Positions 7,966 to 25,965 are shown, counted from the first letter of the stretch. The stretch: 64,000 bases of DNA from Elusimicrobiota bacterium (GCA_026388095.1 JAPLKL010000041.1:36016-100015); one strand, 5' to 3'. Notes: generated by a model not told the origin, from the letters alone. Program-made: numbers and translations.

Positions 7966-9906
7966 TTAGGACATGTGTTGGGGGCCCGCCGCGCCTGCGG
8001 GAGCCCCGCTGGGCGGCGGCGTGCCCGGCTGCGCCACCGGGAGGGTGAGCTTGAAGACCGTGCCCTGGCCGACCACGGACTCGACCTCCACGCCCCCGTT
8101 GTGGCGGTCCAGGACCTTGCGCACGACGGCCAAGCCCAGGCCGGTGCCGCGCGCCTTGGTGGTGAAGAAGGGGGCGAAGATCTTGTCCAGCACGTCCGCC
8201 GGTATGCCGGGGCCCGTGTCGCCGATGAGGATCGCGACCGATTTGCCGTCTGCCGCCATGCGCGTGTGCAGGCTGACCGTGCCCTTCTGGGGCATGACCT
8301 CGATGCCGTTGTTCATCAAGTTGCGGATGGCCTGCTGCACCTCGGTGGTGTCGATGTCCACCAGGGGGTTGGCGGGGTCGAACTGCTTGTCCAAAGCGAT
8401 GTGCGGCGGGAAGGGGTAGACGGAGAGGAGCTCCTCGAGCCAGGCGTTGAGGAGGACCCGCTCGGGCTTGAGCTCGCGCGTGCGGGAGTAGGTCAGGATC
8501 TCGTTGATGATGCCGTTGGCCTGCTTGATCTCCGACTCGATGATCCGGATGTGTTTGTCGATCTTGGGGTCGGTCCCCGCCGGCGCGGTCCCGAGCTTGG
8601 TCTTGATGAAGTAGATGGAGTTGTTGATGACCGCCAGCGGGTTGCGGATCTCATGGCCGACGACGGAAGCCATCTGCCCTATCGCGGCCAGCCGCTCCTT
8701 CTTGATGAGCTCATCCTGGGCCGCCTTGAGCTCCCGGGTTCGCGCCTCGACGCGCTTCTCCAGGAACTTGGTGAACTTCTCCAGCTCCTGCTTGGCGTGG
8801 ATGAGTTCCCCCGTCTTCTCCTTCAAGGACTCGCTCATGGCCAGGAAGGTCTGGGCGAGGTCTCCGATCTCGTCGTTGGTGGTCGTCATCTCGGGCAGGT
8901 CCTCGAACTGCCCCCGGCCCAGCCGAGCCGCGGCCTCGCGCAGGAGGCGGATGGGCTGGGTGATGTGGCCGGCCACGGCCAAGGAGAGCAAGATCGTGAA
9001 GAGCACCACCCAGACCAAGACCCGGAAGATCTGGTTCTTCATCTCCGCCGCGGTCTGATAGGCGTATTCCACCGGCTGCTGCACGTAGACGACCCAGTCC
9101 AGGTCGCGCACGTCGGCGTAGGCCCCCAGCAGGCGCCGGCCGTCGCCCAGGGCCATCTCGCCGCCGCCCTTGGGGGCGGTCTGGGTGGTGATGATCTTGA
9201 GGACCTCGTCGCTCATGCGCGCGTCGGGCTTGAAGACCTCCTTGGGGCTCGAATGCGCGATGAGGAAGCCGTCGCGCTTGTCCACCACGGCCGCGGCGGA
9301 TTTCCCCGTGGCCGGGAACTCCATGCCCAGCATCGAGGAAAGGCCGTTGAGGCTGACCCGCGCCATCAGCACCCCCACGGCCTTGGCCGGCTGCGCCTTC
9401 TGATCGATGACGGCCACGGCGATGGTCGCCGTGGGATAGAGCCCCTGGAAGCGCTCGAGCTTGCCGATGTACTGCCCCCGGCGCATGGCCTCCACGAAGA
9501 ACTCCTCGCCCTCGAAGCTGCGCATCTCCGGCGCGGAGCCCAGGAACCGGCCCGTGCGCATCTGCTCCACGCCCAGGGTGCTGCTGACGGAGAGCTCCAG
9601 GACGGCGAGGTGCACCTGCATGATCCGGTTGAGGTACTGCTGCTGCTTGACGGGGTTCATGGAAGCGAACTCGTCGATGCCGGCGGTCTCGGCCAGGACG
9701 TTGCGGAAGGTGGTCACGTATTTGTAGACCGTGTCGGCGAAGCCCACGGCCAGCGACTCCTGCATGGCCAAGGTCTCCTTGCGCAGGGAGGCCTGGGAGA
9801 TGCCGACGAGGTGATAGCCCACCACCCCCATGGGCGCCAGGGAGATGAGCAGGAACCAGAAGAGGATCTTGTAGGCGAGCTTGCCGCGGCGCGCAGGAGG
9901 CGGCAT
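7966..9906 (-). CDS. Membrane sensor histidine kinase (periplasmic sensor domain, HAMP, HisKA, HATPase_c).
   Basis: TM1 is ILFWFLLISLAPMGVVGY. A periplasmic domain of about 250 aa follows, then TM2, a HAMP region, the H-box VVGHEIRNPLAV, and the ATPase motifs (LMNNGIEVM, GDTGPGI, GTGLGLAVV). Confidence 0.85.
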   Translation of the reverse strand: MPPPARRGKLAYKILFWFLLISLAPMGVVGYHLVGISQASLRKETLAMQESLAVGFADTVYKYVTTFRNVLAETAGIDEFASMNPVKQQQYLNRIMQVHLAVLELSVSSTLGVEQMRTGRFLGSAPEMRSFEGEEFFVEAMRRGQYIGKLERFQGLYPTATIAVAVIDQKAQPAKAVGVLMARVSLNGLSSMLGMEFPATGKSAAAVVDKRDGFLIAHSSPKEVFKPDARMSDEVLKIITTQTAPKGGGEMALGDGRRLLGAYADVRDLDWVVYVQQPVEYAYQTAAEMKNQIFRVLVWVVLFTILLSLAVAGHITQPIRLLREAAARLGRGQFEDLPEMTTTNDEIGDLAQTFLAMSESLKEKTGELIHAKQELEKFTKFLEKRVEARTRELKAAQDELIKKERLAAIGQMASVVGHEIRNPLAVINNSIYFIKTKLGTAPAGTDPKIDKHIRIIESEIKQANGIINEILTYSRTRELKPERVLLNAWLEELLSVYPFPPHIALDKQFDPANPLVDIDTTEVQQAIRNLMNNGIEVMPQKGTVSLHTRMAADGKSVAILIGDTGPGIPADVLDKIFAPFFTTKARGTGLGLAVVRKVLDRHNGGVEVESVVGQGTVFKLTLPVAQPGTPPPSGAPAGAAGPQHMS

Positions 9907-9993
9907 GTCAGATGTCCTCTCGGTTCGTCACGCTAAGGTCCCTCGGGATGTCCGGTCCCGGGCGGGTCCTGCCGCCGGCCACCCGCCCGCAGG

Positions 9994-10371
9994 TCAACCG
10001 CCAGGCGTCCGGCGCGACAGGAGCTGCTTGATGCGGATGGACAGCTCGGCCAAGTCGAAGGGCTTGGTGATGTACTCGTCGGCGCCCAGTTCGAAGCCCT
10101 GCTTCTTCTCCTCAGAGGAAAGGAAGCGTCCGGTCATCATGATGAGGATGGTCTGGCGCGAGCGCTTGCGCAGGGTCTGGCAGATCTGGAAGCCGCTGGA
10201 GTCCGGCAGCTGGATATCCATGATGACGACGTCAGGATCGACCTTCTTGGCCGCCTCGATGCCGGAGTGGGCCGCGCCCGCCTGGGTGCATTCGAATCCC
10301 TCCAGCTCCAGGACCTCGGCGAGGCTCTCGCGCAGGTGCGCGTCGTCGTCGATGATGAGCAGCTTGGCCAT
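9994..10371 (-). CDS. Single-domain CheY-like response regulator.
   Basis: The sequence MAKLLIIDDDAHLRE...DVVIMDIQLPDSSG...ITKPFDLAEL is a canonical receiver domain with no output domain. Confidence 0.85.
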   Translation of the reverse strand: MAKLLIIDDDAHLRESLAEVLELEGFECTQAGAAHSGIEAAKKVDPDVVIMDIQLPDSSGFQICQTLRKRSRQTILIMMTGRFLSSEEKKQGFELGADEYITKPFDLAELSIRIKQLLSRRTPGG

Positions 10372-10372
10372 G

Positions 10373-11173
10373 TTACCTCCGCAGTTCCGTGCCCGGCGGG
10401 ACCAGCTTGTAGCCGACGCAGGGGATGGTGGTGATGAAGCGCGCGGCCGATCCCAGCTTCTCGCGCAGCCGGCGGACGTGAACGTCCACCGTGCGCGGCG
10501 AACCGAAGTAGTTGTAGCCCCAGACGCGCTCGATCAGGTAAGGGCGCGAGAGCACCCGGTTCGACGAGCTCAAGAAGACGTAGAGCAGGTCGAGCTCCTT
10601 CGATGTCAGCGCCACGCGCTTGCCCGAGACGTGCAGGGTGTAGCTCGTCAGGTTGAGCTCGATGGGGCCCATCTTGATGATCTCTTCCGAGGCGTTGACC
10701 TGGGTGCGCCGCAGCACGGCCTTGATGCGAGCCACGCACTCCGCCGCGTCCCAGTTCTGGGACAGGCACTCGTCGGCCCCGGCCTGGAAGAACTCCAGGC
10801 GCAGGGAGGCGCCGCGGGTGCCCGGGGCCGCGATGGCCGGGGAAGGCTGGGACTTGGTGAAATAGCTGGCGTAGGCGGGCCGGACCACCGCAGCCGGCGT
10901 GGATGCGGGGGCGTCGGCGTGCTCCACCAGCGCGATGATGGGGAGCTGCTTCGTCGGCCCGCGGGAGCGCAGGGTCTTGACCATGGACACGCCGTCCTCG
11001 TCGACCAAGCGCTCCCCGATGAGGAGGAGCTCGCAGCTGCGGTTGGCCAGCAGGCCCAGGAGCTCCTTGGACTTCTGGGCCACGGTCACGGAGAGGCCGT
11101 TGGCCGCCATAGCCTCCAGGATGACCGCGGCCCGGTTGGGCTCGCGCGACGCGTAGACGACGTTCACCCGCAT
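10373..11173 (-). CDS. OmpR-family winged-helix regulator with a degenerate (pseudo-)receiver domain.
   Basis: The C-terminal trans_reg_C winged helix is clear (LTSKELDLLYVFLSSSNRVLSRPYLIERVWGYNYFGSPRTVDVHVRRLREKLG...ITTIPCVGYKL). The N-terminal REC-like region lacks the phospho-acceptor Asp (LLLIGERLVDEDG occupies the place of LLDxxMP) and carries a Pro/Ala-rich insertion. Confidence 0.75.
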   Translation of the reverse strand: MRVNVVYASREPNRAAVILEAMAANGLSVTVAQKSKELLGLLANRSCELLLIGERLVDEDGVSMVKTLRSRGPTKQLPIIALVEHADAPASTPAAVVRPAYASYFTKSQPSPAIAAPGTRGASLRLEFFQAGADECLSQNWDAAECVARIKAVLRRTQVNASEEIIKMGPIELNLTSYTLHVSGKRVALTSKELDLLYVFLSSSNRVLSRPYLIERVWGYNYFGSPRTVDVHVRRLREKLGSAARFITTIPCVGYKLVPPGTELRR

Positions 11174-11709: not shown

Positions 11710-12822
11710 TCAACCGAAAGCCCGCATGCCGCCCGCCGGGCCGCCCTTGGGCTCGAAGAGGATGAGGGTCCGGCGCAGCTCGCCTTCCTCCTCCAGGTGC
11801 ACGGCCCGGACATGGCAGGATTCGCCGTGGAACATGGTGTCCGCCTCGACCAGCTGGTTGGGCCGGTCCAAGGCCACTCCCACCAGGCGCAGCACGTCCT
11901 GCTGCTGGCTGTCGATGACGTCGAGGAGGTGCATCTTGCCGTCCGCGCCGCCCGCCGCGGTCATGGGAAAATTCGTGAACAGGACCGAGTTGTCCTCGTC
12001 GACCACGATGGCCTTGTGGCTCTTGGCCACCACGGCGCTGAGGATGGACTGCCACCAGCGGGCCTCGGCCACCCCCCGCTGCTTCTCCTTGACCATGGTG
12101 TTGGCCACCTCGGCCTTCACCTTGGAGAGGAAGATGTTGATGACGTTGGCCAGTTCCCCGATCTCGTCGTGCCGCGGCGGGAATTTGAGCTCCAGGTTCT
12201 TGAACAGCGACAGCAGCGGGTTGAGGACGAAATGGTGGAGGAAGAAGTAGAGCGGGATGCCGAGCAGGAAGAGCACCCCCACCGCCCCGACCGCGTATTT
12301 GCTCATGGCCTTGTTGATGACCTTGACCACGCCCTCCCGGCTGATCTGCAGGTCGAGTATGCCCATGACCTCGCCGCGCAGCGCCAGGGGGATGGCGATG
12401 TCGTAGAGCGGCATCCCGGGCACGGCGCGCACCACCGGAGTCTTGGCCAGCGAGGCCTGCTCGATGGCGTCGGTGGGCAAGGACACCTCCTTGACGAACT
12501 GCTCGAAGGTGTAGGTGATCTTGCTGGGGTCGCGGAACCAGCGCACCTCGCCGAACTTATTGAGGTAGAGCAAAGAGGCCACCCGGTCGTCCTTGGAGAA
12601 GCGCATGACCACGTCGTGCTCGTCCATGGAGAGGGCGCTCTGGCTGCGGGCCAGGCCCGTGATCAAGGTGGGCGCGTAGAGGCGCACCATGTCGATGGCC
12701 TCCTGCTTGAGCTTCTCGTCGAAGGTCCACTTGAAGAGGTTGTAGTAGAAGATGCCGCCCAGGACCATGACGTAGATTCCGATCATGGTGAACCACATGA
12801 ACCACTTCGAGGAGAGTCTCAT
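11710..12822 (-). CDS. Membrane protein with a HAMP domain and an unknown C-terminal domain; a signal-transduction protein.
   Basis: The start is MRLSSKWFMWFTMIGIYVMVLGGIFYY (TM1). A periplasmic region follows, then TM2 (VGVLFLLGIPLYFFLHHF) and a HAMP-like amphipathic segment (PLLSLFKNLELKFPPRHDEIGELANVINIFL). No kinase or GGDEF output domain was recognised. Confidence 0.6.
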   Translation of the reverse strand: MRLSSKWFMWFTMIGIYVMVLGGIFYYNLFKWTFDEKLKQEAIDMVRLYAPTLITGLARSQSALSMDEHDVVMRFSKDDRVASLLYLNKFGEVRWFRDPSKITYTFEQFVKEVSLPTDAIEQASLAKTPVVRAVPGMPLYDIAIPLALRGEVMGILDLQISREGVVKVINKAMSKYAVGAVGVLFLLGIPLYFFLHHFVLNPLLSLFKNLELKFPPRHDEIGELANVINIFLSKVKAEVANTMVKEKQRGVAEARWWQSILSAVVAKSHKAIVVDEDNSVLFTNFPMTAAGGADGKMHLLDVIDSQQQDVLRLVGVALDRPNQLVEADTMFHGESCHVRAVHLEEEGELRRTLILFEPKGGPAGGMRAFG

Positions 12823-14171
12823 TGGGGGCTGCCGTAGAGGTTGTTGATGCGTTCCAGGCCAGCCTTGGCGTCGGGGTTGGCCGGGTCGAGCTGCAGGGCG
12901 TGCGTCCACTCGTTGCGCGCTTTCTCGAAGTCGCCCTTGTCGTAATAGATGATGCCGGAGAGGTAATATTGCTGAGACTGGCGCTTGTTCTCCTCGCTGG
13001 TCCCGAGCGCCGCGGCCGTCTGCGTGACATCGGTCTTGGCGGTGCCGGTGCTCGCCGAGATGTTGGTGGCCGCGGCCTTGGCGTCGGCTTCCGCCTTGGC
13101 CTTGGCCTCGGCCTCCACCTTGGCGACTTCCGCGGCCCGCTGCTTCTCCTCATCAGCTTTCAGCTTGGCGATGTCCGCGGCGCGCTTGCGGGCGGCGTCC
13201 TCGCGACGGACCTGCTCTTTGGCCCGGGCGATCAGTTGGTCGGCCGCCCTGGTGTCGTAGCCGTAGCCGACCGCCTTCTTCCATTCCCCCTGAGCCTCGT
13301 CGTATTTGCGCGACTCGTAGAGCTTGCGGCCCGCCACCAGGTGCTGGCTGGCCATCTCGGAGCGGATCTCGGCCTGCAGCTTCTGCGCCTTGGCGTTGCC
13401 CGGTCCCAGGGCCAGCACCTCGTCGAGCATCTTGATGGACTCGTCGATGAGGCCCTGGCTGTAAAGGTTGAGCGCGGTCTGGAGCTTCTCGTTGGCGTCG
13501 GCCTCGCGGGTCTCGGCCTCCACCTTGGCGATCGCCGGGACCAGGCGCGGGTAGCGCGGGTTGAGGACCAGGGCCGCGTACCACTGGTCCAGGCACTCGC
13601 GCAGACGGTGCTGCCGGTAGGCCTTCTGCCCGCGCCGGAAATGGTCGTCCGCCATCTCGCTGCGGGCCTTCTTGAGCCACCAGCGGGCCTTGAGGTTGCT
13701 GGGCGCGAGCTTGACCGCCTCCTCCCAGCGCCCGGTCGCCTCCACCAGGCGCCCCTGGCGGTAGAGCGCCATCCCCTCCTCGAAGCGGTCCTCGATGAGC
13801 TTTTGCTCCGAGGCGTACGGCTTGGGCGAGCCGTTGAGCTCTATGGTGGCGCGCTGCAGGATCGAGGCGTCCTCGTAGGCCGGGTCGATGGCCAGGATCT
13901 TGGAGGTGAGATCCCGCGCCCCGTTGAAGTCGCCCTTCCGATAGAGGTCGAAGGCGTTGTCGTAGACCCCGCCCAGGGTCTTGCGCATCATGCGCGCCTT
14001 CTCCAGCTGGATGGTGTAGATGTACTTCTTCTTGTCCTCCTCCGAGGTGATGGTGCCCAGATTGAGCTTGGCCATGTCCAGAAAGAGCCCGTCGGCGTCC
14101 TTGACCCGGGGGAGGTCCTGCCCCCAGGAAGCCGCCGCGAGCCCGAGCCACAACAGGAGTTGCCCGTGCAT
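12819..14171 (-). CDS. Secreted TPR-repeat protein, TadD-like.
   Basis: The ATG at 14171 overlaps the tadC stop (ATGA). The signal peptide is MHGQLLLWLGLAAASWGQ. Multiple TPR-like repeats follow (for example YRQGRLVEATGRWEEAVKLAPSN and YDKGDFEKARNEWTHALQLDPAN), and the C-terminus is Lys/Ala/Glu-rich coiled coil. The N-terminal ~300 aa of the track ORF are spurious. Confidence 0.75.
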   Translation of the reverse strand: MHGQLLLWLGLAAASWGQDLPRVKDADGLFLDMAKLNLGTITSEEDKKKYIYTIQLEKARMMRKTLGGVYDNAFDLYRKGDFNGARDLTSKILAIDPAYEDASILQRATIELNGSPKPYASEQKLIEDRFEEGMALYRQGRLVEATGRWEEAVKLAPSNLKARWWLKKARSEMADDHFRRGQKAYRQHRLRECLDQWYAALVLNPRYPRLVPAIAKVEAETREADANEKLQTALNLYSQGLIDESIKMLDEVLALGPGNAKAQKLQAEIRSEMASQHLVAGRKLYESRKYDEAQGEWKKAVGYGYDTRAADQLIARAKEQVRREDAARKRAADIAKLKADEEKQRAAEVAKVEAEAKAKAEADAKAAATNISASTGTAKTDVTQTAAALGTSEENKRQSQQYYLSGIIYYDKGDFEKARNEWTHALQLDPANPDAKAGLERINNLYGSPQ

Positions 14172-15082
14172 CAGAATCCCAGGCCTCCCGAGATGAGCGA
14201 CTTCATCATCGGCGCCAGCATCAGGATGAACACCGTGGGGAAGATGAAGATGAAGAGCGGGATGAGCATCTTGGTGGAGGCCTGGGCCGCGAGCTTCTCG
14301 GCCTTGTTGAGCCGGCGGAAGCGCATGTCCGTGGCGTAGTTGCGCAGGAGCTCCACCAGGCTGGTGCCCAGTTCGTCGGATTGGATGATGAGCCCCACGA
14401 AAGAGCGGATCTCCTGCACGCCCGTGCGCATGGCCAGGCGCTTGAGGGCGTCGCGGCGGGAGTAGCCCAGCGAGATCTCGTTGATCATCTTGCCCAGCTC
14501 GACTTCGAGCTCGGTCTTGGCCTTGGCGTTCTTGAGGATGCGGTCGATGGCGGTCATGTAGTCCAGGCCGGCCTCGATGGTGAGCGCGGTCAAGTCCACG
14601 AAGGTCGGGAAGTTGCGCATGATCTCGGTCTGCCGGGCCTTGATCTTTCCGTTGAACAGGGAGTCGGGGATGAAGAAGCCGACCAGGCCGAAGATCCCCA
14701 GGATCGGCGAGCCGGTCATGAAGTAGATGAAGCCGGTCAGTCCGGCGGCCAGCATCTCCTTGAGATGCAGCATATCCAGGGGAGAGGGCTTGTTGGGCCT
14801 GCCCATCATCATGTGCATCTCCTCGAGCTTGACGTCGAGGTGGAAGGTCCTGAGCAGGAAGAGGTCGATGCGGTCGAGCAGGCCGCCTTGCGGGTTGAGG
14901 CCCGAGAAGGCCGAGCTCATGCCCAGGTCCTTCTTGGCCAGCAGGGCCAGGTCGGACTTGTCCACATCGGGCGGCGGGGCCAGCAGCCGATGGATGGAGG
15001 TGTAGGCGGCCACCGACCCCAGCACCCCCACCACCAGGAGCAGGAAATGCACGAACTGGCCGCTCAGCAGGGTGTCGCTCAT
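14171..15082 (-). CDS. tadC: Flp pilus assembly protein TadC (T2SS F-domain inner-membrane platform protein).
   Basis: The protein has a T2SSF-type topology of about 300 aa, with one N-terminal TM and two C-terminal TMs (LIPLFIFIFPTVFILMLAPMM). It overlaps tadB by 4 nt. Confidence 0.85.
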   Translation of the reverse strand: MSDTLLSGQFVHFLLLVVGVLGSVAAYTSIHRLLAPPPDVDKSDLALLAKKDLGMSSAFSGLNPQGGLLDRIDLFLLRTFHLDVKLEEMHMMMGRPNKPSPLDMLHLKEMLAAGLTGFIYFMTGSPILGIFGLVGFFIPDSLFNGKIKARQTEIMRNFPTFVDLTALTIEAGLDYMTAIDRILKNAKAKTELEVELGKMINEISLGYSRRDALKRLAMRTGVQEIRSFVGLIIQSDELGTSLVELLRNYATDMRFRRLNKAEKLAAQASTKMLIPLFIFIFPTVFILMLAPMMKSLISGGLGF

Positions 15083-16590
15083 ACCTGGACATCCCCCAGC
15101 TTATTGACGATCTTCATGCCGATGGCGATCCACATCGTGCAGAACATGAGCACGCAGACCCCCAGCGGCGTGAAGTAGAAATCCTTCATCGGGCCCGGCT
15201 GGAAGGCGAACATGATGAAGAACATGACCCAGGGCATGACCCCCACCACGATGGCCTGGATGCGCTGCTGCGCGGTCATGGCCGCGGTCTTCTCGATGAG
15301 CTTGGTCTCCTCGCGGATGTTCTCCACGATGCGGTCGAAGATCTTGGTGAGGTTGCCCCCGACCTGGCGCTGGATGACCACGGCCTTGATCATGTAGGAG
15401 AGCAGCCGACTCTGCACGCGCTCCTCGACGCCCTCCAGCGCCTTCTCCAGGCTGGTGCCCAGTTGGTAGTTCTTGATGCAGAGCCCGAACTCCTCGGAGA
15501 TGGGCGGCTGCAGGTCCCGGTGCACCAATTCGAGGCATTGCACGAGGTCGATGCCGGATTTGAGGCCGTTGGACATCAGGATCATGGCGTCCATGAGCTG
15601 GGCCTCGCACTTCATGCCCCGCCGCCAGCGGATGTTGCGCAGCAGCCAGCCGGGAAGGATGAGCCCCCCGTATACGCCGAACCCGGTGAAGATCAGGAAG
15701 CCGAAAGGATCGAAGGTCAGCAGGCCGATGAGGACGCCCAGGGCCGCCGGCCCCCCCACCAGATAGTTGACCTTGATGGTGATGAACTGGCGTTCGTAGT
15801 CATGCGCCCACTCCTTGGCCTTGACCTTGTAATCCGCGACGTACTTGGCGATGCGCGGCTCGTTGAGCGAGCCCACGAACCAGAAGGCCGCGAAGAACAG
15901 GGCGATGCCGCCCAGCTTGAAGAGCGTGGCCAGCGCCAGCGCGGTCTTGCGGTCCCCCGGGGGCTCCGGAGGCGCGTAGCCCCGCGGCATGCGGTTGAGC
16001 ACGCGGAAGGCGTTGTCGGTCAGGCCCCCGACGGCCAGGACCGCTTCCCGGTAGCGGTCGGCGTCCGACGAAGTCAACGCGTCTATGACGCTGTCCATCT
16101 CCTTGAGGATGAGGTCGAAATCGGCCATCACCGCCCGGCCGCGGCCGCCCAGAGAGCTGCCCAGATGCGCGCGGTAGAGGCGGTCCAAGGACATCTGGAA
16201 CCGGATGCGGTTGTCGGCGTAGTCGCGGATGAGGGCCCCGGGCTGGAGCAGCTGGCCGCCGTCGGAGGGCAGGAAGGTCTTGCGGGTGAGCTCGAAGAAC
16301 TCGTAGAGCACCGAGACCGGGGCCTGCCAGAGCTGGGCCTCGTTGATGACCCCCTCCTCCGGGTCCTGCCAGACCGGCCTCTTGAGCATGGCATCGAGGG
16401 TCGAGTCGATCCAGGAGGGCACCGGCAGGCCGGGGTCGCGGTCCTTCTTGAAATAGTGATAGATGATCTGGCTCTTGGCCTCGGCCCCGTCGGTCTTGTC
16501 CACCAGGAACTTGACCTCCGCGGGCGAGAAGATCTGCGCGCCCGCGGGCGCGGCCATGAGCCACAGGATGATCCCGAGCCAGGCTCTCAT
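15079..16590 (-). CDS. tadB: TadB-like T2SSF platform protein fused to an N-terminal signal-peptide-bearing periplasmic domain of about 230 aa.
   Basis: The N-terminus [19 protein letters not shown] is a signal peptide and is followed by about 230 aa of unknown sequence. The C-terminal half has the TadB/T2SSF topology (LVGGPAALGVLIGLL..., IVVGVMPWVMFFIMFAF...). Confidence 0.8.
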   Translation of the reverse strand: MRAWLGIILWLMAAPAGAQIFSPAEVKFLVDKTDGAEAKSQIIYHYFKKDRDPGLPVPSWIDSTLDAMLKRPVWQDPEEGVINEAQLWQAPVSVLYEFFELTRKTFLPSDGGQLLQPGALIRDYADNRIRFQMSLDRLYRAHLGSSLGGRGRAVMADFDLILKEMDSVIDALTSSDADRYREAVLAVGGLTDNAFRVLNRMPRGYAPPEPPGDRKTALALATLFKLGGIALFFAAFWFVGSLNEPRIAKYVADYKVKAKEWAHDYERQFITIKVNYLVGGPAALGVLIGLLTFDPFGFLIFTGFGVYGGLILPGWLLRNIRWRRGMKCEAQLMDAMILMSNGLKSGIDLVQCLELVHRDLQPPISEEFGLCIKNYQLGTSLEKALEGVEERVQSRLLSYMIKAVVIQRQVGGNLTKIFDRIVENIREETKLIEKTAAMTAQQRIQAIVVGVMPWVMFFIMFAFQPGPMKDFYFTPLGVCVLMFCTMWIAIGMKIVNKLGDVQV

Positions 16591-18878
16591 TTGGGCGCCG
16601 TCCCCGGCGGCGGGGGGCCTCCGCCGGAACCCTTCTTCTTCTTGGTCTCGTCGCTCTCGTACATCTCGCGCGGCATCTTGATGCCCTTGAGTTTGAACTC
16701 CTCATGGAAGCTCGGGACGTAGTCCTGGCCCGTGTAGTAGCCGACGCTGCGGCCCTGCTCGTCCACGGACACCTGCTTGAACCGGAAGATGTCCTTGGTC
16801 TTGACCTGGTTGCCGTCCTTGCCCGTGATCTCCGTGATGTAGGTGACCCGGCGCTTGCCGTCCGAGAAGCGGGTGATCTGCACGATCATATGGACGGCGC
16901 TGGAGATCATGTCGACCAGGACGCTCATGGGCAGTTCGGTGCCCGAGAACAGGCACATGGCCGAGAGGCGCGAGACGGCGTCGTTGGGGGTGTTGGCGTG
17001 GATGGTGGCCAGCGACCCTTCGTGGCCGGTGTTCATGGCCTGGAGCATGTCCAAGGCCTCGCCGCCGCGGCACTCGCCGACCACGATGCGGTCGGGGCGC
17101 ATGCGCAGGCAGTTCTTGACCAGGTCGCGGATGGTGATCTCGCCCTTGCCCTCGATGTTGGGCGGCCGGCTCTCCAGGCGCACCCAGTGCTCCTGCATGA
17201 GCTTGAGCTCGGCCGTGTCTTCCACCGTGACGATGCGCTCGTCCTCCGGGATGAAGTTGGAGAGCATGTTGAGGAAGGTGGTCTTGCCGGTGCCGGTGCC
17301 CCCCGAGATGATGATGTTCTTGCGCAGCAGCACGCAGTCCTTGAGGAACTCGATCATGTCCGGGGAGACCGAGCCGAAGCCGATGAGCTGCTTGTAGGTG
17401 AAGGGCTTGGCCGAGAAGCGCCGGATGGTCAGGCTGGGCCCGGAGACGGCCAGGGGCGCGATGATGGCGTTGACGCGCGAGCCGTCCTTGAGGCGGGCGT
17501 CCACCAGCGGCACCGACTCGTCGATGCGCCGGCCGATGGGGGCCACGATGCGCTTGATGACCTGGATGACCTGCTCGTCGCTGCGGAAGCGGTTGGGCAG
17601 GAGCACCAGCTTGCCGGCCCGCTCGATGTAGATGTGGTCGAAGGAGTTGACCATGATCTCGTTGACGGTGGGGTCGCGCATGAGGGCCTGCAGGGGCCCC
17701 AGGCCCAGGATCTCGTCGACCAGCTCGCCGACGAACTGCTCGCGCTGCGCGCGCGAGAGCGGCAGGTTCGCCTCCCGCTGCAGGAGGTTCTCGATGATGG
17801 AGGAGACCTTCTTGTGGTTCTCGTCGTTCTGCCCCACGTCGTCCGAGATGCGGATGCGCTCGGTCTCCATGGCGGTCACGACCTGCTTGTGCATCTTGGT
17901 CTTGAGCTCGTCCCAGAACTCCGGGATCCCCGCGGCGGCCGCCGCCCCCGCCCCCGCGGTCTTGTTCGTCTCCGCCGCCGCGGTCTTCGCGGCGGTGCCG
18001 CCGCCCGCGCTGCCCTGGGGCTTCCAGAGGAAGTCGGCGCCCTCGCTGAACTCCTCGGCCGGCATGTAGCTCTCCCAGGACTTCGGGGTGGGCTTGAGCT
18101 CCATGGTCCGGCCCAGGATGATGCGCAGGGTCTTGACCCACTCGCTCTGCAGGTTCTCGACCACGAGGATCTTCTGGGTGTTGGCGTACTCGGGGAGCAG
18201 GTCCTCCCAGGGCATGTAGGCCAGGACCTTCTTCTGCATGGCGCTGAAGAACCGGTCGACCTCCTTGGGCGCCAGCGCCCCGGGGAGGTTCGCCGCGTTG
18301 ACGATGACCTCGAACTTCTCCAGGGGGAAGTGCAGGGCCTTGATCTCCTGGAACATGTTGTAGGTGGCCTCGAAATGGGCGCGTTGGGGCAGACAGACCC
18401 AGTAGATGAGGTCGGCCAAGTCGAAGGAGAAGATCTGCATCGGGAAGAAGGGGTCCACGTCCAGGAACAGGTCGTAGGCCTCGGCGAGCGAGCCCAGGAT
18501 CTGCACCACCAGCTGCGGGGAGAGGCTCAGAATCTCGGAGCGCTTGGCGGCCAGGGGCAGCAGGCCGACCCCCCACTGGGTCATGGGGATGCGGCCCTTG
18601 AGGAGCCTGCCCAGGCCGGTGGGGTTGTCCCCGACGAGCTGCGCCATGCTGGCCACGGTCGGCGGGTTGACCCCGAGCAGGTAGGAGATATCGTTGCGGC
18701 AGAGGGGGTCCATGTGGACGATGATGACCTTCCGGTTCTGGCTGCCGGCCCAGGCCAAGGCCAGGTTGAGGCACAAGGTGGTCTTGCCGACCCCTTCCTT
18801 GGGGCCGGTGAACACGAGCACCCGGCTCGGCTCCTTGGCGAGCCGCCCGGTCTCAGTCTCGGGCTTGACTTCTGCCAT
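16587..18878 (-). CDS. Fusion of a TadZ/CpaE-like ParA/MinD-type ATPase domain with the CpaF/TadA secretion ATPase (VirB11/PilB family).
   Basis: The N-terminal ~280 aa carry a deviant Walker A motif ([17 protein letters not shown]). An Ala/Gly-rich linker follows. The C-terminal half has the CpaF Walker A ([15 protein letters not shown]), Walker B ([12 protein letters not shown]), the Asp box and the His box ([12 protein letters not shown]). Confidence 0.85.
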
Positions 18879-18890: not shown

Positions 18891-19643
18891 TTATTTGACG
18901 ATCTCCATGGTGATGAACAGGAACAGCGAGGACTGCGTCTCCACGACGCTCGAGCTGGTGAAGAGCAGTCCCAGAATCGGGATCCGGCCTATATAGGGTA
19001 CGCGCGTCTTGGTCACGTTCTTGGTGCTCGACTTCAGGCCCCCCAAGACCAGCGTCTCGCCGCTCTTGATCTCGACCGAGGTCTGGATCTGGCGGGTGAC
19101 GAAGGACGGCACCGTGGTGTTGCCCACCTGCACGGGCTTGGAGTAGTCCGGGTTGGAGACCTCCAGCTGCAGCTCCGCGCGGATGGTGTCCTTCTTGTTC
19201 GGGTTGATGACCGGCATGATGTTGAGGATGACCCCGTACTTCTTGAGCTCGACTCCCACGCTGCCCGTGGCCCCGGTCACCGGATAGGGCTGCTCGCCGC
19301 CGACCACGAAGTTGGCCTGCGATTGGGCCTGCACGATGACCTTGGGATTGGAGAGCAGCTGCGCCTTGCCTTCGGTCTCCAGCATCTTCAGCGAGGCCTG
19401 CAAGGCGGTCTGCCGGGCGAAGTCCCCGATCTTGTATATGCCGGGGATCTCCTTCTCCGCGAAGTTGATGCCGCTCTGCAAAGGTCCCCATGTGAAACCC
19501 GTGGACACATCCTTGGAGCCGGAAAGCTCCACGATATCCGCCGAGACCGCCACGAGGGAATCCTCGGGCTGGGCCCAGAGCTGCGCGCCGCCCAAAAGCA
19601 GCGCCAGCGAAAGCGACAGACGCCCTGACAGTTGTCTCAGCAT
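18891..19643 (-). CDS. cpaC: Secretin of the CpaC/RcpA family (outer-membrane channel of the Tad pilus); a short form.
   Basis: The signal peptide is MLRQLSGRLSLSLALLLGGAQLWAQP. The secretin C-domain carries hallmark motifs (VVGGEQPYPV, VSNPDYSKPVQVGNTTVPSFVTRQIQTSVEIKSGETLVLGGL, VPYIGRIPILGLLF). Confidence 0.8.
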   Translation of the reverse strand: MLRQLSGRLSLSLALLLGGAQLWAQPEDSLVAVSADIVELSGSKDVSTGFTWGPLQSGINFAEKEIPGIYKIGDFARQTALQASLKMLETEGKAQLLSNPKVIVQAQSQANFVVGGEQPYPVTGATGSVGVELKKYGVILNIMPVINPNKKDTIRAELQLEVSNPDYSKPVQVGNTTVPSFVTRQIQTSVEIKSGETLVLGGLKSSTKNVTKTRVPYIGRIPILGLLFTSSSVVETQSSLFLFITMEIVK

Positions 19644-19688: not shown

Positions 19689-20444
19689 CTACTTGAACAG
19701 CTTGCGGAAACTCGCCATCTCCATCGGATGCATCTCCACGTCGCCCAGACCCCGCAGGACCACGGTCGTGTCGCCCTGCTTCATGGCCAAGGACAGGTAC
19801 TGCGCCTCGTTGGGGTTGAGCGCCAGCGCGATCATGGCCTTCTCCGAGAAGGCCGCGGTCTTGTCCTCCTTGTCCGTGGCGACCTTGGCCTGCTTGGCGT
19901 TCATCCCCTGGCCGAGGTTCGTCCCCACCGCGATGACCAGGACGTTCTGCAGGATGGTCGCCGTCACCCGCTCCTTGCGGCCGTCCGCCATCACGGCCTC
20001 GAAGGTCACCAGGACGTCCACGCGGTCGCCCGGCTTGATGAGGGGCTTGAGCTCGTTCTCGATGCCCAGGATGGCGCCGCGATAGCCCGGCGGGATCTTG
20101 ACGCTCAGGCCGGCCTCGGGAGACAGGGAGATCAGCGCCGACTGGCAGATCTGGTTGCCCTTGGGGACACGCACCCGGGTGACCAGGTTGGCGATGAGCT
20201 TGATGTCGGCCGGAGTCTTGACCTCGAAGGCGTCCTGCTCCATGAACTTGCGCGGGACCTGCATCGGCTCGGCCATCTCCTCCTTGAGCACGGTGCGCTC
20301 CGGGATGTCCACGCGGGCGACCAGGACCTGGCCGGTTTCATAGGCCGAGGAAAGCGCCCGCTCCTTGCTCGTGAGCACCATCAAGTAGAAGATGGCGGCC
20401 CCCATGGCCAGCACCATCGGCACCAATATCCCTTTCTTTTCCAT
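19689..20444 (-). CDS. cpaB: Flp pilus assembly protein CpaB/RcpC (SAF domain).
   Basis: There is an N-terminal TM (ILVPMVLAMGAAIFYLMVL), a SAF-like domain (LVARVDIPERTVLKEEM), and a C-terminal RcpC β-domain. Confidence 0.85.
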   Translation of the reverse strand: MEKKGILVPMVLAMGAAIFYLMVLTSKERALSSAYETGQVLVARVDIPERTVLKEEMAEPMQVPRKFMEQDAFEVKTPADIKLIANLVTRVRVPKGNQICQSALISLSPEAGLSVKIPPGYRGAILGIENELKPLIKPGDRVDVLVTFEAVMADGRKERVTATILQNVLVIAVGTNLGQGMNAKQAKVATDKEDKTAAFSEKAMIALALNPNEAQYLSLAMKQGDTTVVLRGLGDVEMHPMEMASFRKLFK

Positions 20445-20447
20445 AGT

Positions 20448-20915
20448 TCAGAAGGCCAGAGGCCTCTCGATGGGCATGCGCACCTCCGCCGAGATTGTGC
20501 ACCAGCCCCCGCCCGGCCCCTGCGGGCAGAGGATCGGCGACGACATCAGGATGCTGCTCAACGGGAAGACGAACTTGATCGGGTTGCTTCCCGTCACCAC
20601 GAGGTCTGCGTTGGTGACCTGCGCCTGAGTGTCCTGGAAGGAGTGGTAGTCCAAGGTGCAGGACACGGTCGCGGACTGGAGGATGCGTTTCATCAGAGGC
20701 ACCAAGCGGCCGCAGTCAGGCAACACCGTGCCGCTGGAGAGGCATTGGGTCATGGCCCCGATGCGGGCCACCTCGTAGGTGGCGTGGTTGAGCAGGATCA
20801 TCTGGAACGACATGTAGCCCATCTCCATGATCGTGAAGACGATGGTCAGGAAAATAGGCAGGACGAGGAGCATCTCCACGAGAACCTGCCCATGTTTCCA
20901 TCCCCTCTTCGACAC
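20448..20915 (-). CDS. TadE-like pseudopilin.
   Basis: The N-terminus MSKRGWKHGQVLVEMLLVLPIFLTIVFTIMEMG is a TadE-family N-terminal domain. Confidence 0.8.
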   Translation of the reverse strand: MSKRGWKHGQVLVEMLLVLPIFLTIVFTIMEMGYMSFQMILLNHATYEVARIGAMTQCLSSGTVLPDCGRLVPLMKRILQSATVSCTLDYHSFQDTQAQVTNADLVVTGSNPIKFVFPLSSILMSSPILCPQGPGGGWCTISAEVRMPIERPLAF

Positions 20916-20983: not shown

Positions 20984-21190
20984 TTAGTTGCCCTGCCCCA
21001 ACGACGTGGCGGCGCCTGAGATCATCTGCTGGATCGAGCTGAACAGACCCGGCATGAACCGCTTGAGCGCCACCCCGGCCACCAGCACGACGCCCACGAC
21101 CACCGTCAGCATCAGCAGATACTCTACGGTGTTCTGACCTTTCCGGCTCTTGAGCCACTTGCGCGCCGCTTCCACTCTCATCGTCATCAT
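20984..21190 (-). CDS. flp: Flp/Fap-family type IVb pilin (prepilin).
   Basis: The sequence MMTMRVEAARKWLKSRKGQNTVEYLLMLTVVVGVVLVAGVAL has a short basic leader, a G/xxxxEY processing motif and a hydrophobic helix. AGGAG lies 10 nt upstream of the ATG at 21190. In-frame ATGs also occur at 21187 and 21181. Confidence 0.75.
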   Translation of the reverse strand: MMTMRVEAARKWLKSRKGQNTVEYLLMLTVVVGVVLVAGVALKRFMPGLFSSIQQMISGAATSLGQGN

Positions 21191-21212: not shown

Positions 21213-21380
21213 TCAGTAATAGGTCGAAAGAATCTTCTTGCCGGCCAGGATGAACAGCAGCTTCAACTGCCCCTGGATGAACCCGTACATGGCCGCGAAG
21301 CACGTCACCAAGACCATCGTGGTCAGGATGTACTCGACCGCAGCCTGTCCTTTCCGCCATCCCGGCATCTTCAGAGCCAT
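21213..21380 (-). CDS. flp: Second Flp-family pilin (55 aa), not in the ORF track because it is under 60 aa.
   Basis: Manual translation gives MALKMPGWRKGQAAVEYILTTMVLVTCFAAMYGFIQGQLKLLFILAGKKILSTYY*. It has the same leader-GQ-xxVEY-hydrophobic-helix architecture as the adjacent pilin. An alternative in-frame ATG at 21389 would give MTYMALK... Confidence 0.6.
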   Translation of the reverse strand: MALKMPGWRKGQAAVEYILTTMVLVTCFAAMYGFIQGQLKLLFILAGKKILSTYY

Positions 21381-21442
21381 GTACGTCATTGAGTGTATCA
21401 GCCACGGTTTTCCTTGTCAATAACCTTTCCATTAAAAATACA

Positions 21443-22417
21443 TTAAAACTTGACCTTAAAGGAGAATTGGTCGACGGTGCCGAGAGCTCCGTAAGGGACG
21501 TAGGCATAGTCCAGGGCGATGCCGTACCCGAAGGCCCGCGAGGTGAACAGCCCGAAACCGAAGGAAAGACCGGCGGTCCGGTCCATGCGCAGGTTCTTGA
21601 GCGTGCCGTCGAAGCTCTGGCCCAGGGTGTCCGCGTTGTAGTACCCCGCCCGGAACGTGACCTGCCCGACGTCGAGATACTGCTCGGGGAGCATGAATTC
21701 CCCGCCCACGCCGAAATGGGCTCCCGAGTCGGAGGCCTCATTGAGCTCCAGGCCGATATTGAAGAAGTCTCCCAGCCGCAGGGCCGCCCCGCCCCGCGTC
21801 GTGGCGGGGACGTTCTCCTTGTTGGTCCCGAAGTTCTGCACCGCGAATCCCAAGGTCAGCACGCTGTTGGGCTTGAGCAGGACGCCGAAATCGCCGACGA
21901 CCGTGTCGTGCACGCGGCTGGCGAGGTCCTCATGGACCAAGCGCACCGCGCCGCCCAGGAACAGCTTCTCGTACCAGAACGACCGCGCCATGCCGATGGA
22001 GCCGAATCCGTCGCGCACATTGATGTTCTCGCCGGTCTGGGGTACGCCGTTGGCGTCGCGCACGTCGAAGCCCGATACGCTCATGTAGGCGATGTTGGCG
22101 CCCCAGACCGTGCGGCCCATGGGATGGGCGTAGCCCAGATAGAGGGGCGAGTCCGTGTCCTGGACGTAGCGCAGGTAGGAGTAGACCAACTCCTTCTGCT
22201 GGGTCAGGGCCAAGCCGGCGGGGTTCCAGGTCAAGGCGTCGGCGCCCTCGGCCAAGGCCACGTAGGCCTTGCCCAGGGCCTGGGCCCGCGCCGAGCCCTG
22301 CTGGAGCTCCATGAACTGGGCGCCGCTGGTGCCGGCTTGATCGGAGATGGCCCAAGCCGCGGCCGGGCCGCCGAGCAGCCAGACGCATGCGAGCAGGGCC
22401 GTTATCCCGAGTCTCAT
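21443..22417 (-). CDS. Outer-membrane beta-barrel protein, PorV/PorQ/FadL-like.
   Basis: The signal peptide is MRLGITALLACVWLLGGPAAAWA. The conserved N-terminal motif GSARAQALGKAYVALAEGADALTWNPAGLA matches the PorV/PorQ/FadL-like barrel family. Alternating hydrophobic β-strands follow, and the C-terminus is an aromatic residue (FSFKVKF). The start abuts the stop of the giant upstream gene. Confidence 0.65.
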   Translation of the reverse strand: MRLGITALLACVWLLGGPAAAWAISDQAGTSGAQFMELQQGSARAQALGKAYVALAEGADALTWNPAGLALTQQKELVYSYLRYVQDTDSPLYLGYAHPMGRTVWGANIAYMSVSGFDVRDANGVPQTGENINVRDGFGSIGMARSFWYEKLFLGGAVRLVHEDLASRVHDTVVGDFGVLLKPNSVLTLGFAVQNFGTNKENVPATTRGGAALRLGDFFNIGLELNEASDSGAHFGVGGEFMLPEQYLDVGQVTFRAGYYNADTLGQSFDGTLKNLRMDRTAGLSFGFGLFTSRAFGYGIALDYAYVPYGALGTVDQFSFKVKF

Positions 22418-25400
22418 CGCACCAGGAATTTCTTCACCGTCTGCAGGATGTTCCTGCTGCCGTCCGTGGCTTCGGCCCGGAATACCGCGTAGTACAACCC
22501 GCGCGCCACCCGGCGGCCGGCGGAGTTGGAGCGGGTCCAGGCGAAGCACGGGACGCCGCCCGCCGTGGAGCCCCCGCTGACGTAGTTATTGGCCTGCTGC
22601 TCCCCGAAGTCCTTGTCCAGGACCAGCTCGCCGCTCATGGTGTAGAGCTTCATCTTGACGTCGGCCTGGAACGGCGAGAAGATGACGATGTTGGCGCTGT
22701 CGCCGTCCACGGGGTTGGGGTAGATGTAGGTGTTTCGCTCGAAATCCCCTTTGGGATCAGCGGACTGGTTGCGCACCACGGCGACCTCGTCGAGCGGCCG
22801 GTCCTCGGCCAGCTCCAGCGGGAAGATCACGTTGCCCGTCATATTGTCGATGGCGCTCATGTCCGTCGAAGCCACGATGCTGAATTTGTAATTCCCGTCG
22901 GGGGTCGCGCCCAGGCGCAGATCGGTGCCGTCCCAGGTCTCGGTGACCTCCGTGCGGCCCGGCCGCACGCCCACGATGCGCTTGACCAATGACACGGCCT
23001 CGGGCGGCGACGGGTTGCCGTTGCCGTCGAAGACGGTCCCTGGGCGGTAGATCTTGACCGACACCTTCATGGTCGCGGAGACCTGGTAGAGGATGCGCGC
23101 CCCCTCCGAGCCGTTGGTCAGCGGCGCGATGGCCACGTCGTAGATGCGCAGCGGGTCGTAGGCGATGGTCATCTGGGCCGTGGAGGGCTGGTTGAGCTGG
23201 GAGGCCACGTCCTGGGCCACGCCGCGCACCAGGTAGAAGCCGGACGGCGGGAAGTTGCCCTTGTCGTCCCGGCCGTCCCAGACGTCCTCCAGCAGCAGGC
23301 CGCCGTCGCGCACTCCCCCCAAGATGACCGAACGCACGACCTGGTTGGGGACGTTGTTGTTGAGGATCTGGATGGTGACCGAGGATTGGCGGGTGAGTGC
23401 GTAGCTGATGGTGAAGGGGTCCAAAGTGATGCTGGAGCTGGAGTTGAACATCTGCGGCACGGTCGGAGTCACGTTGAAGGTGGTGAAGATGATCGCGCCG
23501 CGGCTGACGGTCACGCTCCCGAAGACCCGGTCCGTGGCGTAGTACTGGGGAGTCGTCGTGGACTGCGCGACCAAGGTGAAGACGTAGCTGCCGTCCGGGA
23601 CCAGCAGTCCGTTGGCGTCCCGGCCGTCCCAGTATTCGGTGATGCGCATGCGGCCGGGCCGCATCCCGTGGTAGCTGATGAGGGGCCCGATCTTGCCGCC
23701 TTGGGAGTCCACGGTGTTGTCGCAGACGGTGGTGGACATGCCGCAGGGCGGCCAGGTGGAGGTGCTGTTCTTGATGACCGTGCCCGGGGAGTAGATGTTC
23801 CACACCACGTTCATGGGCTGGGAGAGTTGATAGTTGAGCGAGACCGAATCCGAGGTCCCGGCCATGAGCGGCGTGGTCACCACGTCCGTGATGCGGAACA
23901 GGTCAACCGGGAAAGACGACGACACCGTCGAGACCTTCATGGTGCACAAAGGGTCCGCGGCGGTCAGCTGGACGATGTAAGTGCCCGAAGTGACCCAACG
24001 GCCGGTGTTGTCCACCGCGTCGCCCCATATCTCCTGGTTGGCGAACAAGCCGGGCCGGACCACGTTTTCGGCGAGGGTCCTGACCAAAGTGGTCCCGTCG
24101 GCCTGGAAGATCTTCACGCTCGCGATGGCGTCGCGGCCGAGCTGATACCGGAACACGAAGGGATTGAGGCCGCTGATGGCCGGGCTGGAGCCGATGACGG
24201 TGGGGCTGGCGGCGATCTGGCTGAGGCCCACGTTGCCCCGCACCACCGGCATGAAGCCAGTCTGGGCCTTGGTCGTCCAGATGCGGCGGTCTTGCACGCT
24301 GCTGATGAAGGGGCTCCCGTTCTGCGAGGGCAGGGCGGCGTAGATCACGAAGACGTAGTCGCCGTCCGTGCAGACCGCGTTGCCGTTCATGTCCCGGCCG
24401 TCCCAGAAGGTCAACGCGGAGCCGCGGCCGGCCTTGATCTCCTCGAAATGGCGCACCAGGGGAGCCGGGGACGAGTTCGGGCCGGTGCAGGCGCCTATGT
24501 AGGGTTTGAAGTCCTTGGGTCCGTGCACCCACTCGAACCCGCCGGAGATGACTGGGCCCGCCCGGTCCAGGTTGACCGGGTCATTGACATTGTTGAGGTT
24601 GCCGCAGAACTGGGTGTTAGGAGGATAGATGTCTATATACACCGTCGCCGGCTCGGTGAGGGTGTAGCTCAAAGTCGCCAAAGACGTCGCTGAGCCCGCC
24701 AGAGGCGCGACCCTGAGGTCCGTGATCTGGAGGGGGTCCAAGCTGATCTGCCGCGTGGTCGGGTAGGACAGGTCGCCCCCGTACTGGTCAACGGCGAAGG
24801 CCTGCAAGGTCGCCAGGAACACCCCGGGGGGCAGGAGATCCCCGTTGTCTGCGCGGCCGTTCCAGGCATCGCCGTTGAGCAAGGTCCCGTTGGGCGTGCC
24901 CTCGCCCACGCGCGCCACGCCCGGCAGCACGGAGCGCAGCACCGCGCCGCTGTCCGGGTCGGTGACGGTGATGTACATCGAGGCGTCCTTGGAGAGCCGG
25001 TAAGTGATGTTGTAGGGCTCCACGTAGACCCCGGCGCTGCCCACCACCGTGGGAGAGGAGCGCACCACGTGCACGTTGGTGACGTCCACCTGCACGGGCT
25101 TCTGCAGGACGAAGAGCGCGTTGGCATCCATGGTGGCTCCCGCCGGATAGGCGCGCTGGGCCGTGATGGTGATGTTGCCGCTGGAGCCGGTCTGGTTGGT
25201 CTGGGCCGTGATGCGGAATCCGTACTGTCCGTTGGTCTTGCCCAACTCGCCCTGGATGCTGACTGCGCCGTCCCAGAGCACGCAGTAGGGTTTCACACCG
25301 CTCGTGGTGGAGTTGGTGTAGGGAGCCAGGACCCCGGGGGCGTCCACGAAGAAGGTGCGGATCGGCGGGGTGGAGCCCGCATCCAGGGGGTTGGCCCCGT

Positions 25401-25911: not shown

Positions 25912-25965
25912 CACCCTAGCAGTGCCAAAATAGCCTAAATCTGTTTCCGGAGTATTACCGGCATG

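Follow-up and report, generated by a model that had tools for sequence, protein, structure and literature searches.

A 64,000-nt stretch of DNA from an Elusimicrobiota bacterium (GCA_026388095.1, JAPLKL010000041.1:36016-100015; the whole stretch is hereafter called the window) contains a gene, at positions 16587..18878, in which a TadZ/CpaE-like ATPase domain of the ParA/MinD family is followed in the same polypeptide by a TadA/CpaF-type secretion motor. This fusion gene is real and conserved, and it lies in an Elusimicrobiota Tad (Flp) pilus operon. Its product is the Elusimicrobiota member of an already known kind of protein, the TadZA fusion; its distinctive features are a clade-specific Pro/Glu P-loop (PKEG for GKGG) and a secretin of only 250 amino acids encoded in the same operon. 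We estimate at about 0.8 the probability that the gene encodes the TadZA-type fusion ATPase of the Elusimicrobiota Tad pilus machine.

The gene is located on the minus strand, which had been left unstated in the original prediction, made from the DNA sequence alone. It consists of one open reading frame (ORF) that runs from ATG to TGA, encodes 763 amino acids, has zero internal stops and is preceded by a Shine-Dalgarno-like AAGGGAG sequence 8 nt 5' of the ATG. Pfam analysis identified a CbiA/MinD/ParA domain (PF01656) at residues 22-233 (E 2.9e-9; 37.4 bits, with a cut-off of 25.4) and a T2SSE domain (PF00437) at residues 392-675 (E 3.6e-63). The best NCBIfam match was a TadA-type model over residues 359-682, and the N-terminus matched the MinD and ParA models weakly. 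The single 763-residue ORF with its two Pfam domains confirms the prediction that one polypeptide joins both ATPase domains.

One obvious concern is whether this ORF is an artefact, that is, whether the loss of a stop codon or a frameshift in the linker merged adjacent tadZ-like and tadA genes, a false read-through that the original prediction had itself raised. Canonical tadZ and tadA genes are only a few nucleotides apart, so that a single error could merge them, and the junction is of low complexity and GC-rich. However, the G+C content at third codon positions (GC3) is 0.93-1.00 in one frame from start to stop, and it is 1.00 over codons 241-360, including the linker. Furthermore, a search of 5.8 billion proteins yielded, among the matches listed, at least 120 orthologue clusters from independent NCBI, JGI, ENA and Logan assemblies, in which the gene is a single ORF. 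These clusters show 63-92% identity to the window protein and have both domains in all cases; nearly all of them measure 709-882 amino acids with 93-100% query coverage, three being shorter fragments, and nearly all the named ones are Elusimicrobia/Elusimicrobiota metagenome-assembled genomes (MAGs). An exact look-up of the window protein itself in the assembly index gave no record. A syntenic orthologue of 775 amino acids is present on a 3.1-Mb Elusimicrobiota contig (L001), where the gene order is identical to that of the window. A canonical tadZ would also carry the atypical receiver domain, and none is encoded upstream, since only 12 nt separate the end of the secretin gene from the fusion ATG. 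Because GC3 keeps to one frame across the linker and both domains occur in all of these orthologue clusters, a read-through caused by sequencing error is excluded, and the chance that the fusion is an artefact of any such kind is negligible. Identity to the query per 30 residues was 0.68-0.86 in the N-terminal domain vs 0.7-0.98 in the TadA part, and the junction was variable in both sequence and length. The N-terminal domain is conserved as strongly as the TadA part, and the two-domain architecture is under purifying selection across Elusimicrobiota.

As judged from its sequence and predicted structure, the C-terminal part of the protein is a complete TadA/CpaF motor comprising the N-terminal domains NTD1 and NTD2 and the catalytic C-terminal domain (CTD). 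It matched the Caulobacter CpaF structures 8rjf and 9e24, the former with an E value of 1.8e-113 over residues 358-734, and the Walker A, Walker B, Asp box and His box that had been predicted were all located (Table 1). A full-length AlphaFold2 model (57-sequence alignment; mean predicted local distance difference test, pLDDT, of 81.5; predicted template modelling score, pTM, of 0.61) showed a well-folded alpha/beta domain at residues 20-260 (pLDDT ~90), three helices of an NTD1-like domain at residues 322-340, 348-368 and 376-391, and then the two-lobed ATPase. Disorder was predicted for residues 1-14, 282-315 (pLDDT <50) and 752-763. Column counts in 121 sequences revealed a conserved acidic motif after the ParA domain (K266, W268, E276, F277, A281, D282, L284, W285 and K286), with a low-confidence helix modelled at residues 274-285. 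It is followed by the disordered linker, which coincides with the Ala/Gly-rich linker originally placed at ~17950-18050. The linker sequence is poorly conserved (the segment equivalent to residues 265-325 ranges from 49 to 69 amino acids among orthologues), and conservation restarts sharply at P319-x-F-W-D-x-L-K. In Caulobacter CpaF, a disordered and dispensable NTD0 (residues 1-79) precedes the three-helix NTD1 (residues 80-149; PMC11300603). Since CpaF already has a disordered tail, the extra domain appears to have been attached to the end of the existing TadA tail.

With regard to the N-terminal domain, sequence comparison identifies it as a divergent relative of TadZ/CpaE that lacks the receiver-like domain, because of its nearest unfused relatives, its HMM scores and its position in the tadZ slot of an operon without another tadZ. 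When 1.84 billion representatives were searched exhaustively with phmmer, 585 matches were obtained. Below the Elusimicrobia forms, these were more distant two-domain proteins of ~700-745 amino acids (confirmed by Pfam) and proteins of 340-470 amino acids. The latter account for 58 of the top 150 matches, with the match beginning after at least 100 N-terminal residues, and three of the four tested contain Response_reg plus ParA according to Pfam. One of these unfused relatives (P0176) is encoded in the order RcpC, P0176, T2SSE, T2SSF, T2SSF, and another (P0173) directly after the RcpC gene. By architecture and gene position these proteins qualify as TadZ/CpaE. Canonical MinD-type proteins (SGKGGVGKTT, ~265 amino acids) were essentially absent from the top 150 of these matches.

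The same assignment is favoured by the scores. A hidden Markov model (HMM) built from 67 unfused TadZ ATPase domains gave 88.5 bits for the window domain, vs 25.5 bits with the NCBIfam MinD model (cut-off 212.9) and 24.2 bits with the NCBIfam ParA model, and blastp gave up to 75.9 bits to unfused TadZ vs 33.9 bits to E. coli MinD. The domain also departs from MinD in its P-loop (PKEGVGKT, not GKGGVGKT), in the acidic segment that follows it, where MinD has a basic amphipathic membrane-targeting helix, and in its neighbours, which are tad genes and not minC/minE. No separate tadZ, and no second ParA/MinD or T2SSE gene, was found in the 64-kb window. Finally, the ParA domain starts at about residue 19, after the disordered residues 1-14, which leaves no space for a receiver-like domain. 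These data support the two proposals made beforehand for this half of the protein, namely that it is a MinD/ParA-like P-loop domain of the TadZ/CpaE kind and that the receiver-like domain of TadZ is missing from it.

Several results weigh against the TadZA reading. The best sequence match among solved structures was FleN (E 7e-7 with the single sequence and 5.5e-10 with a profile), followed by archaeal MinD, and the TadZ structure 3fkq was weaker than both (E 0.024 and 4.5e-5, respectively). E. coli MinD outscored the window domain on the unfused-TadZ HMM (115.5 vs 88.5 bits), and the fused N-terminal domains of Bdellovibrio and the Omnitrophota reached 173-189 bits on it (173 for Bdellovibrio). 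The sequence K-E-G-V-G-K-T does not fit the TadZ consensus K/RGGxGxS/T, having Glu for the first Gly. In neighbour-joining (NJ) trees, one clan of all fusions obtained a bootstrap of only 22% with the N-terminal domain, and the TadA tree put the fusions on the same side as TadA proteins preceded by an FHA domain (FHA-TadA) with a bootstrap of only 29-35%. The window domain is the most divergent among the fused TadZ-like domains examined and, by the HMM scores, a strongly diverged TadZ relative.

It may thus be asked whether the domain derives from TadZ at all or was recruited from a MinD/FlhG/FleN-type or other ParA-family protein, with a role other than placing the machine, such as allosteric control of the motor. 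Apart from the FleN, archaeal MinD and E. coli MinD scores given above, such a recruitment is favoured by the structural comparison. Foldseek with the model of the isolated domain (pLDDT 80, pTM 0.84) ranked 3ea0 at the top (E 3.4e-11, TM 0.75), with NifH, FleN, MinD and TadZ 3fkq close behind and unseparated (E 1e-9 to 1e-11), so that the modelled fold alone says ParA/MinD family and cannot separate the member families. In addition, PKEG-type domains exist outside Tad loci, where they are duplicated and fused to a Ser/Thr kinase. However, the matches to FleN do not argue against TadZ, because TadZ is itself classed as FleN-related (PMC6668835). Moreover, proteins of the receiver-plus-ParA TadZ type dominate the top 150 matches, in which MinD is hardly seen; both the pairwise and the HMM scores of this particular sequence favour TadZ over MinD; and the domain fills a tadZ slot that would otherwise be empty. 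Recruitment from outside TadZ is hence improbable, and a divergent TadZ relative is the reading that we retain.

A further question is what the altered P-loop does. When aligned with FleN (TGGKGGVGKT), the window protein reads PKEG at the place of GKGG, keeping the signature Lys. Of 120 orthologues, 118 have the tetrad P[KR]EG, and the Walker Lys is also kept in 114 of these. In a diverse alignment of 18 N-terminal domains, Glu28, D57 (switch I) and D140/D142 (Walker B) were invariant. Five orthologues with 76-92% identity to the window protein (P0004, P0013, P0017, P0020 and P0029) have lost the Walker Lys (residue 32), their P-loops being GVGTST, GVGSST, GAGAST (twice) and GVGNST, with the rest of the domain kept. 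At the PKEG position one other fused clade has ARDG, and the Omnitrophota fusions keep TKGGVGKT. TadZ proteins bind ATP and hydrolyse it poorly, and in Soj a bulky residue at this Gly (G12V) reportedly prevents formation of the ATP-sandwich dimer. Because the catalytic Asp is kept, but the Gly beside the signature Lys is an invariant Glu and the Walker Lys is lost in some very close orthologues, the N-terminal domain is probably a nucleotide-binding adaptor and not a cycling enzyme, and the pattern suggests a nucleotide switch that is modified or absent.

Taken to its extreme, the loss of the switch would make the domain a catalytically dead pseudo-ATPase with the sole role of a structural collar, the Glu blocking the ATP-sandwich dimer and with it any ParA-like switching. 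The replacement of the Gly after the signature Lys by Glu28 throughout the clade and the close orthologues without Walker Lys fit such a collar. Conversely, the signature Lys/Arg, the Walker Lys and the Ser/Thr are kept in ~95% of orthologues, the invariance of Asp57, D140 and D142 suggests that nucleotide binding is still selected, and the recurrence of an acidic residue at the same position in the ARDG clade suggests a functional variant rather than decay. We consider a dead collar possible, although rather unlikely. There is less in favour of a related proposal, according to which the PKEG domain is a mechanistically distinct offshoot of TadZ in which the invariant Glu and a dispensable Walker Lys would preclude the ATP-sandwich dimer, and which acts in cis on its own TadA hexamer instead of working as a positioning ATPase. 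It might then gate extension vs retraction, or dock to the long N-terminal extension of TadB, and the PKEG module would have been reused as a general adaptor in other Elusimicrobia, where it occurs in tandem and fused to a Ser/Thr kinase. We find such an offshoot distinctly unlikely, and the TadZA-type pilus ATPase with a probable adaptor domain is the interpretation followed below.

PKEG/PKQG-type ParA-like domains were also observed as tandem pairs in two proteins of other Elusimicrobia, P0123 (1014 amino acids; L005, 8001-11045) and P0122 (822 amino acids); in P0123 the pair is fused to a Ser/Thr protein kinase and is located outside any Tad locus. Two candidates for a pre-fusion gene were discarded. 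One was a stand-alone PKEG-type gene (P0124), which shares a 2.3-kb contig with a neighbouring IS110 transposase and probably represents a disrupted copy; the other was P0123, an unrelated protein with two ParA domains and a Pkinase domain.

The architecture is not restricted to Elusimicrobiota. GTDB species representatives were scanned with a profile of distant fusions, and the resulting 80 loci were sorted by ORF analysis. Single-ORF fusions were found at 13-14 loci (Omnitrophota, a Deltaproteobacteria MAG, Pseudobdellovibrionaceae, Oligoflexia, Bdellovibrionales, Bdellovibrio sp. HCB288, Elusimicrobia and WOR-3). At ~57 loci of other phyla, a canonical tadZ (receiver plus ParA) was followed by tadA within a few nucleotides, and 8 loci of Myxococcota and others encoded FHA-TadA proteins (KilF type). 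About 70 of the GTDB loci (Acidobacteriota, Actinomycetota, Firmicutes and others) had matched over the full length as fusions would, but most of them proved to be adjacent tadZ and tadA ORFs. FHA-TadA without an adjacent tadZ was noted at L048, L051, L054, L059, L073, L075 and L077, with the FHA domain confirmed by Pfam in L048, L059 and L073. Further fused proteins were named from Candidatus Omnitrophica, Myxococcota and a second Elusimicrobia clade (~712 amino acids), and carry the JGI labels 'pilus assembly protein CpaF', 'septum site-determining protein MinD' or both. Hence, given the Bdellovibrio bacteriovorus TadZA fusion described below and the wide distribution of the architecture, it no longer holds that characterised systems keep TadZ and TadA as separate proteins, as stated in the original prediction, and the novelty that this prediction implied for the fusion does not stand.

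Whether these fusions arose once or several times was approached with the NJ trees. The Elusimicrobia PKEG clade (bootstrap 95-100%), the Bdellovibrionota clade (98-99%) and the Omnitrophota clade (96%) were each recovered, and in the N-domain tree the Omnitrophota domains nested among Firmicutes-like unfused TadZ. The window and Bdellovibrio fusions fell into one clan, at the low bootstrap values given above. On these trees, common ancestry of the window and Bdellovibrio fusions is not robustly supported, and either one or several fusion events may be considered. The tight spacing of tadZ and tadA at ~57 of the 80 GTDB loci, which are collinear with the fusion, would make repeated loss of the tadZ stop codon easy. 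The fusion may accordingly be pictured as the product of such a stop-codon loss, after which the disordered N-terminal tail of CpaF (NTD0 in Caulobacter) would have become the linker and the receiver-like domain would have been lost. The grouping with FHA-TadA proteins hints at a TadA lineage prone to gain N-terminal domains. It is a possibility, if an unlikely one, that ParA-TadA and FHA-TadA (KilF) proteins form one ancient lineage of 'N-terminally decorated' TadA with short secretins; if true, that lineage would link the Elusimicrobiota system to the contact-dependent Kil/Bdellovibrio class.

As for its function, the TadA part of the protein would form a hexameric motor that drives the TadB/TadC platform, so that Flp pilin is polymerised and possibly retracted. 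Six tethered TadZ-like domains could then stand in for the ring of CpaE dimers around CpaF, as a built-in scaffold or recruitment module that couples the motor to the platform or to a landmark protein. By analogy with RomR in Bdellovibrio, the N-terminal domain, the motif at residues 266-286 and the linker may bind such a landmark or a platform partner. With covalent tethering, a bridging receiver domain would no longer be needed, and the stoichiometry would be 6:6 instead of 12:6.

The operon that contains the fusion gene is complete (flp, flp, tadE, rcpC, secretin, tadZA, tadB, tadC and TPR), and the start of the TadB-like gene overlaps the fusion stop by 4 nt (ATGA). The features of the gene and of the operon are listed in Table 1.

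Table 1. Features of the tadZA-type fusion gene and of the surrounding Tad operon (positions in the window).
Feature	Position	Strand	Evidence
tadZA-type fusion gene, TadZ-like ParA/MinD domain + linker + TadA/CpaF	16587..18878	-	ORF, Pfam, orthologues, GC3
ParA/MinD-fold, TadZ/CpaE-like domain without receiver-like domain, residues 19-262	18093..18824	-	Pfam PF01656, AlphaFold2, Foldseek, HMM
Deviant Walker A, residues 25-34; Pro and Glu replace both Gly flanking the signature Lys	18777..18806	-	FleN alignment
Conserved motif after ParA domain, residues 266-286	18021..18083	-	column counts, 121 sequences
Disordered Ala/Gly/Pro/Lys-rich linker, residues 288-317 (~30 amino acids)	17928..18017	-	pLDDT, column counts
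TadA N-terminal three-helix domain, NTD1-like, residues 319-391	17706..17924	-	AlphaFold2; corresponds to CpaF NTD1
TadA/CpaF NTD2 and catalytic CTD, residues 392-735	16674..17705	-	Pfam T2SSE, CpaF 8rjf match
TadA Walker A, residues 526-534	17277-17303	-	
TadA Asp box, residues 547-558	17205-17240	-	
TadA Walker B, residues 594-607	17058-17099	-	
TadA His box, residues 618-629	16992-17027	-	
Flp-type pilin candidate, 58 amino acids (..KGQAAVEYIL..)	21213..21389	-	ORF and G/xxxxEY-type motif in translation
Flp-type pilin candidate, 68 amino acids (..KGQNTVEYLL..)	20984..21190	-	translation; syntenic small ORFs in L001
TadE-like pseudopilin	20448..20915	-	Pfam TadE, E 3e-11
RcpC/CpaB	19689..20444	-	Pfam RcpC, E 7.8e-17
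Short secretin, 250 amino acids, Secretin domain at residues 88-250	18891..19643	-	Pfam Secretin, E 8.3e-40
TadB-like platform protein, 503 amino acids, single T2SSF domain at residues 338-461	15079..16590	-	Pfam T2SSF
TadC-like platform protein, 303 amino acids	14171..15082	-	Pfam T2SSF, E 1.7e-17
TPR protein at TadD position, start approximate	12819..14153	-	Pfam TPR families; 449-amino-acid TPR orthologue in L001

The contig L001 presents the order FlgD_ig protein, outer-membrane protein, two small ORFs (59 and 70 amino acids, at the place of the pilin candidates), TadE, RcpC, secretin, fusion, two T2SSF proteins, TPR protein and two-component cluster. The secretin leaves no room for N0/N1-type domains, and its L001 orthologue is equally short (248 amino acids). 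The TadB-like protein has an N-terminal extension of ~330 amino acids without Pfam match, which is also present in its L001 orthologue (502 amino acids). A non-exhaustive scan of the window ORFs revealed no A24 prepilin peptidase (TadV/CpaA) within the operon or close to it; the Bdellovibrio tad loci likewise lack a prepilin peptidase (bioRxiv 10.64898/2026.07.08.737194).

The flanking genes are, 5' of the pilin genes, a PorV/UPF0164-like outer-membrane protein (weak Pfam match; 21443-22549, minus strand) and a protein of 1166 amino acids with FlgD Ig-like repeats (22414-25914, minus strand). This pair also precedes the Tad genes of L001, where the large protein gives faint CHU_C matches too. 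A protein of 669 amino acids (25966-27975, minus strand), rich in Glu, Arg and Ala and apparently coiled-coil, contains near-identical internal repeats (..RRLEL..W/REENLRKEREAWEA..) and has no Pfam match. On the 3' side of the operon there is a two-component cluster (6119-11173, minus strand), syntenic in L001, which comprises an OmpR-type regulator (266 amino acids, weak partial receiver match), a stand-alone receiver (125 amino acids), a dCache-HAMP histidine kinase, a hybrid kinase and a LuxR-type regulator.

Among the core parts of Tad pili, TadZ/CpaE is the one understood least, and an in situ model of its engagement with the motor dates only from 2026. In natural fusions the stoichiometry of the two proteins is fixed and their physical proximity proven, and these fusions show that TadZ can do without the receiver-like domain once it is tethered. 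With fused forms being common in Elusimicrobiota, Omnitrophota, Myxococcota, Oligoflexia and WOR-3, the TadZA of Bdellovibrio, although called 'atypical', is no oddity. The PKEG variant, together with the occasional loss of the Walker Lys, could serve as a natural probe of whether ATP turnover by TadZ matters. For annotation, such genes are better named tadZA than 'CpaF' or 'MinD'. A literature search on Elusimicrobia, pili and CpaF found no report.

In comparison with known proteins, the ParA-family ATPase 3ea0 of Chlorobium tepidum (245 amino acids) is also devoid of a receiver domain and has a TadZ-type P-loop (KGGDGGS); in contrast to the window protein it is stand-alone, and identity is only 17-18%. 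3ea0 is probably a TadZ homologue; a literature search linking 3EA0 with TadZ found no report. The canonical pair of TadZ/CpaE and TadA/CpaF, known from A. actinomycetemcomitans and Caulobacter crescentus, presents the same modules in the same order and operon context, but they are not covalently joined, and TadZ/CpaE carries the atypical receiver domain. The in situ model of Caulobacter has six CpaE dimers around the CpaF hexamer, with receiver domains bridging neighbouring dimers (PMC13170226), that is, 12 CpaE to 6 CpaF, whereas the fusion would fix a 6:6 ratio. The window protein also lacks the basic C-terminal amphipathic helix of the canonical protein and has instead the conserved acidic motif before the linker. 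KilF of Myxococcus xanthus is likewise a TadA motor with an extra N-terminal domain (PMC8460266), which is FHA in KilF and ParA/MinD here. The Kil secretin KilC is 'uniquely short' and without N0 (PMC8460266), and a short secretin is also encoded in the window operon; the Kil system serves contact-dependent prey killing.

The closest known counterpart in architecture is the 'atypical TadZA fusion ATPase' of tad locus 1 of Bdellovibrio bacteriovorus, described in July 2026, in which a ParA/MinD-like TadZ region that lacks the atypical receiver domain is connected by a flexible linker to a C-terminal TadA, and whose gene lies between the secretin gene and tadB (bioRxiv 10.64898/2026.07.08.737194). 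[quoted passage not shown] The fusion of Bdellovibrio sp. HCB288 (740 amino acids; this strain is not B. bacteriovorus HD100) aligned with the window protein in one high-scoring segment pair (query 33-763, subject 28-734; 36% identity over 745 columns, E 9e-156), and the gene order RcpC, secretin, fusion, T2SSF is the same in both. The window protein differs from that of Bdellovibrio in its phylum, Elusimicrobiota, in the lower score of its N-terminal domain on the unfused-TadZ HMM (88.5 vs 173 bits), in its P-loop (PKEGVGKT vs GKGGVGKS) and in its accompanying secretin, which has 250 amino acids vs 507 with a BON domain in Bdellovibrio.

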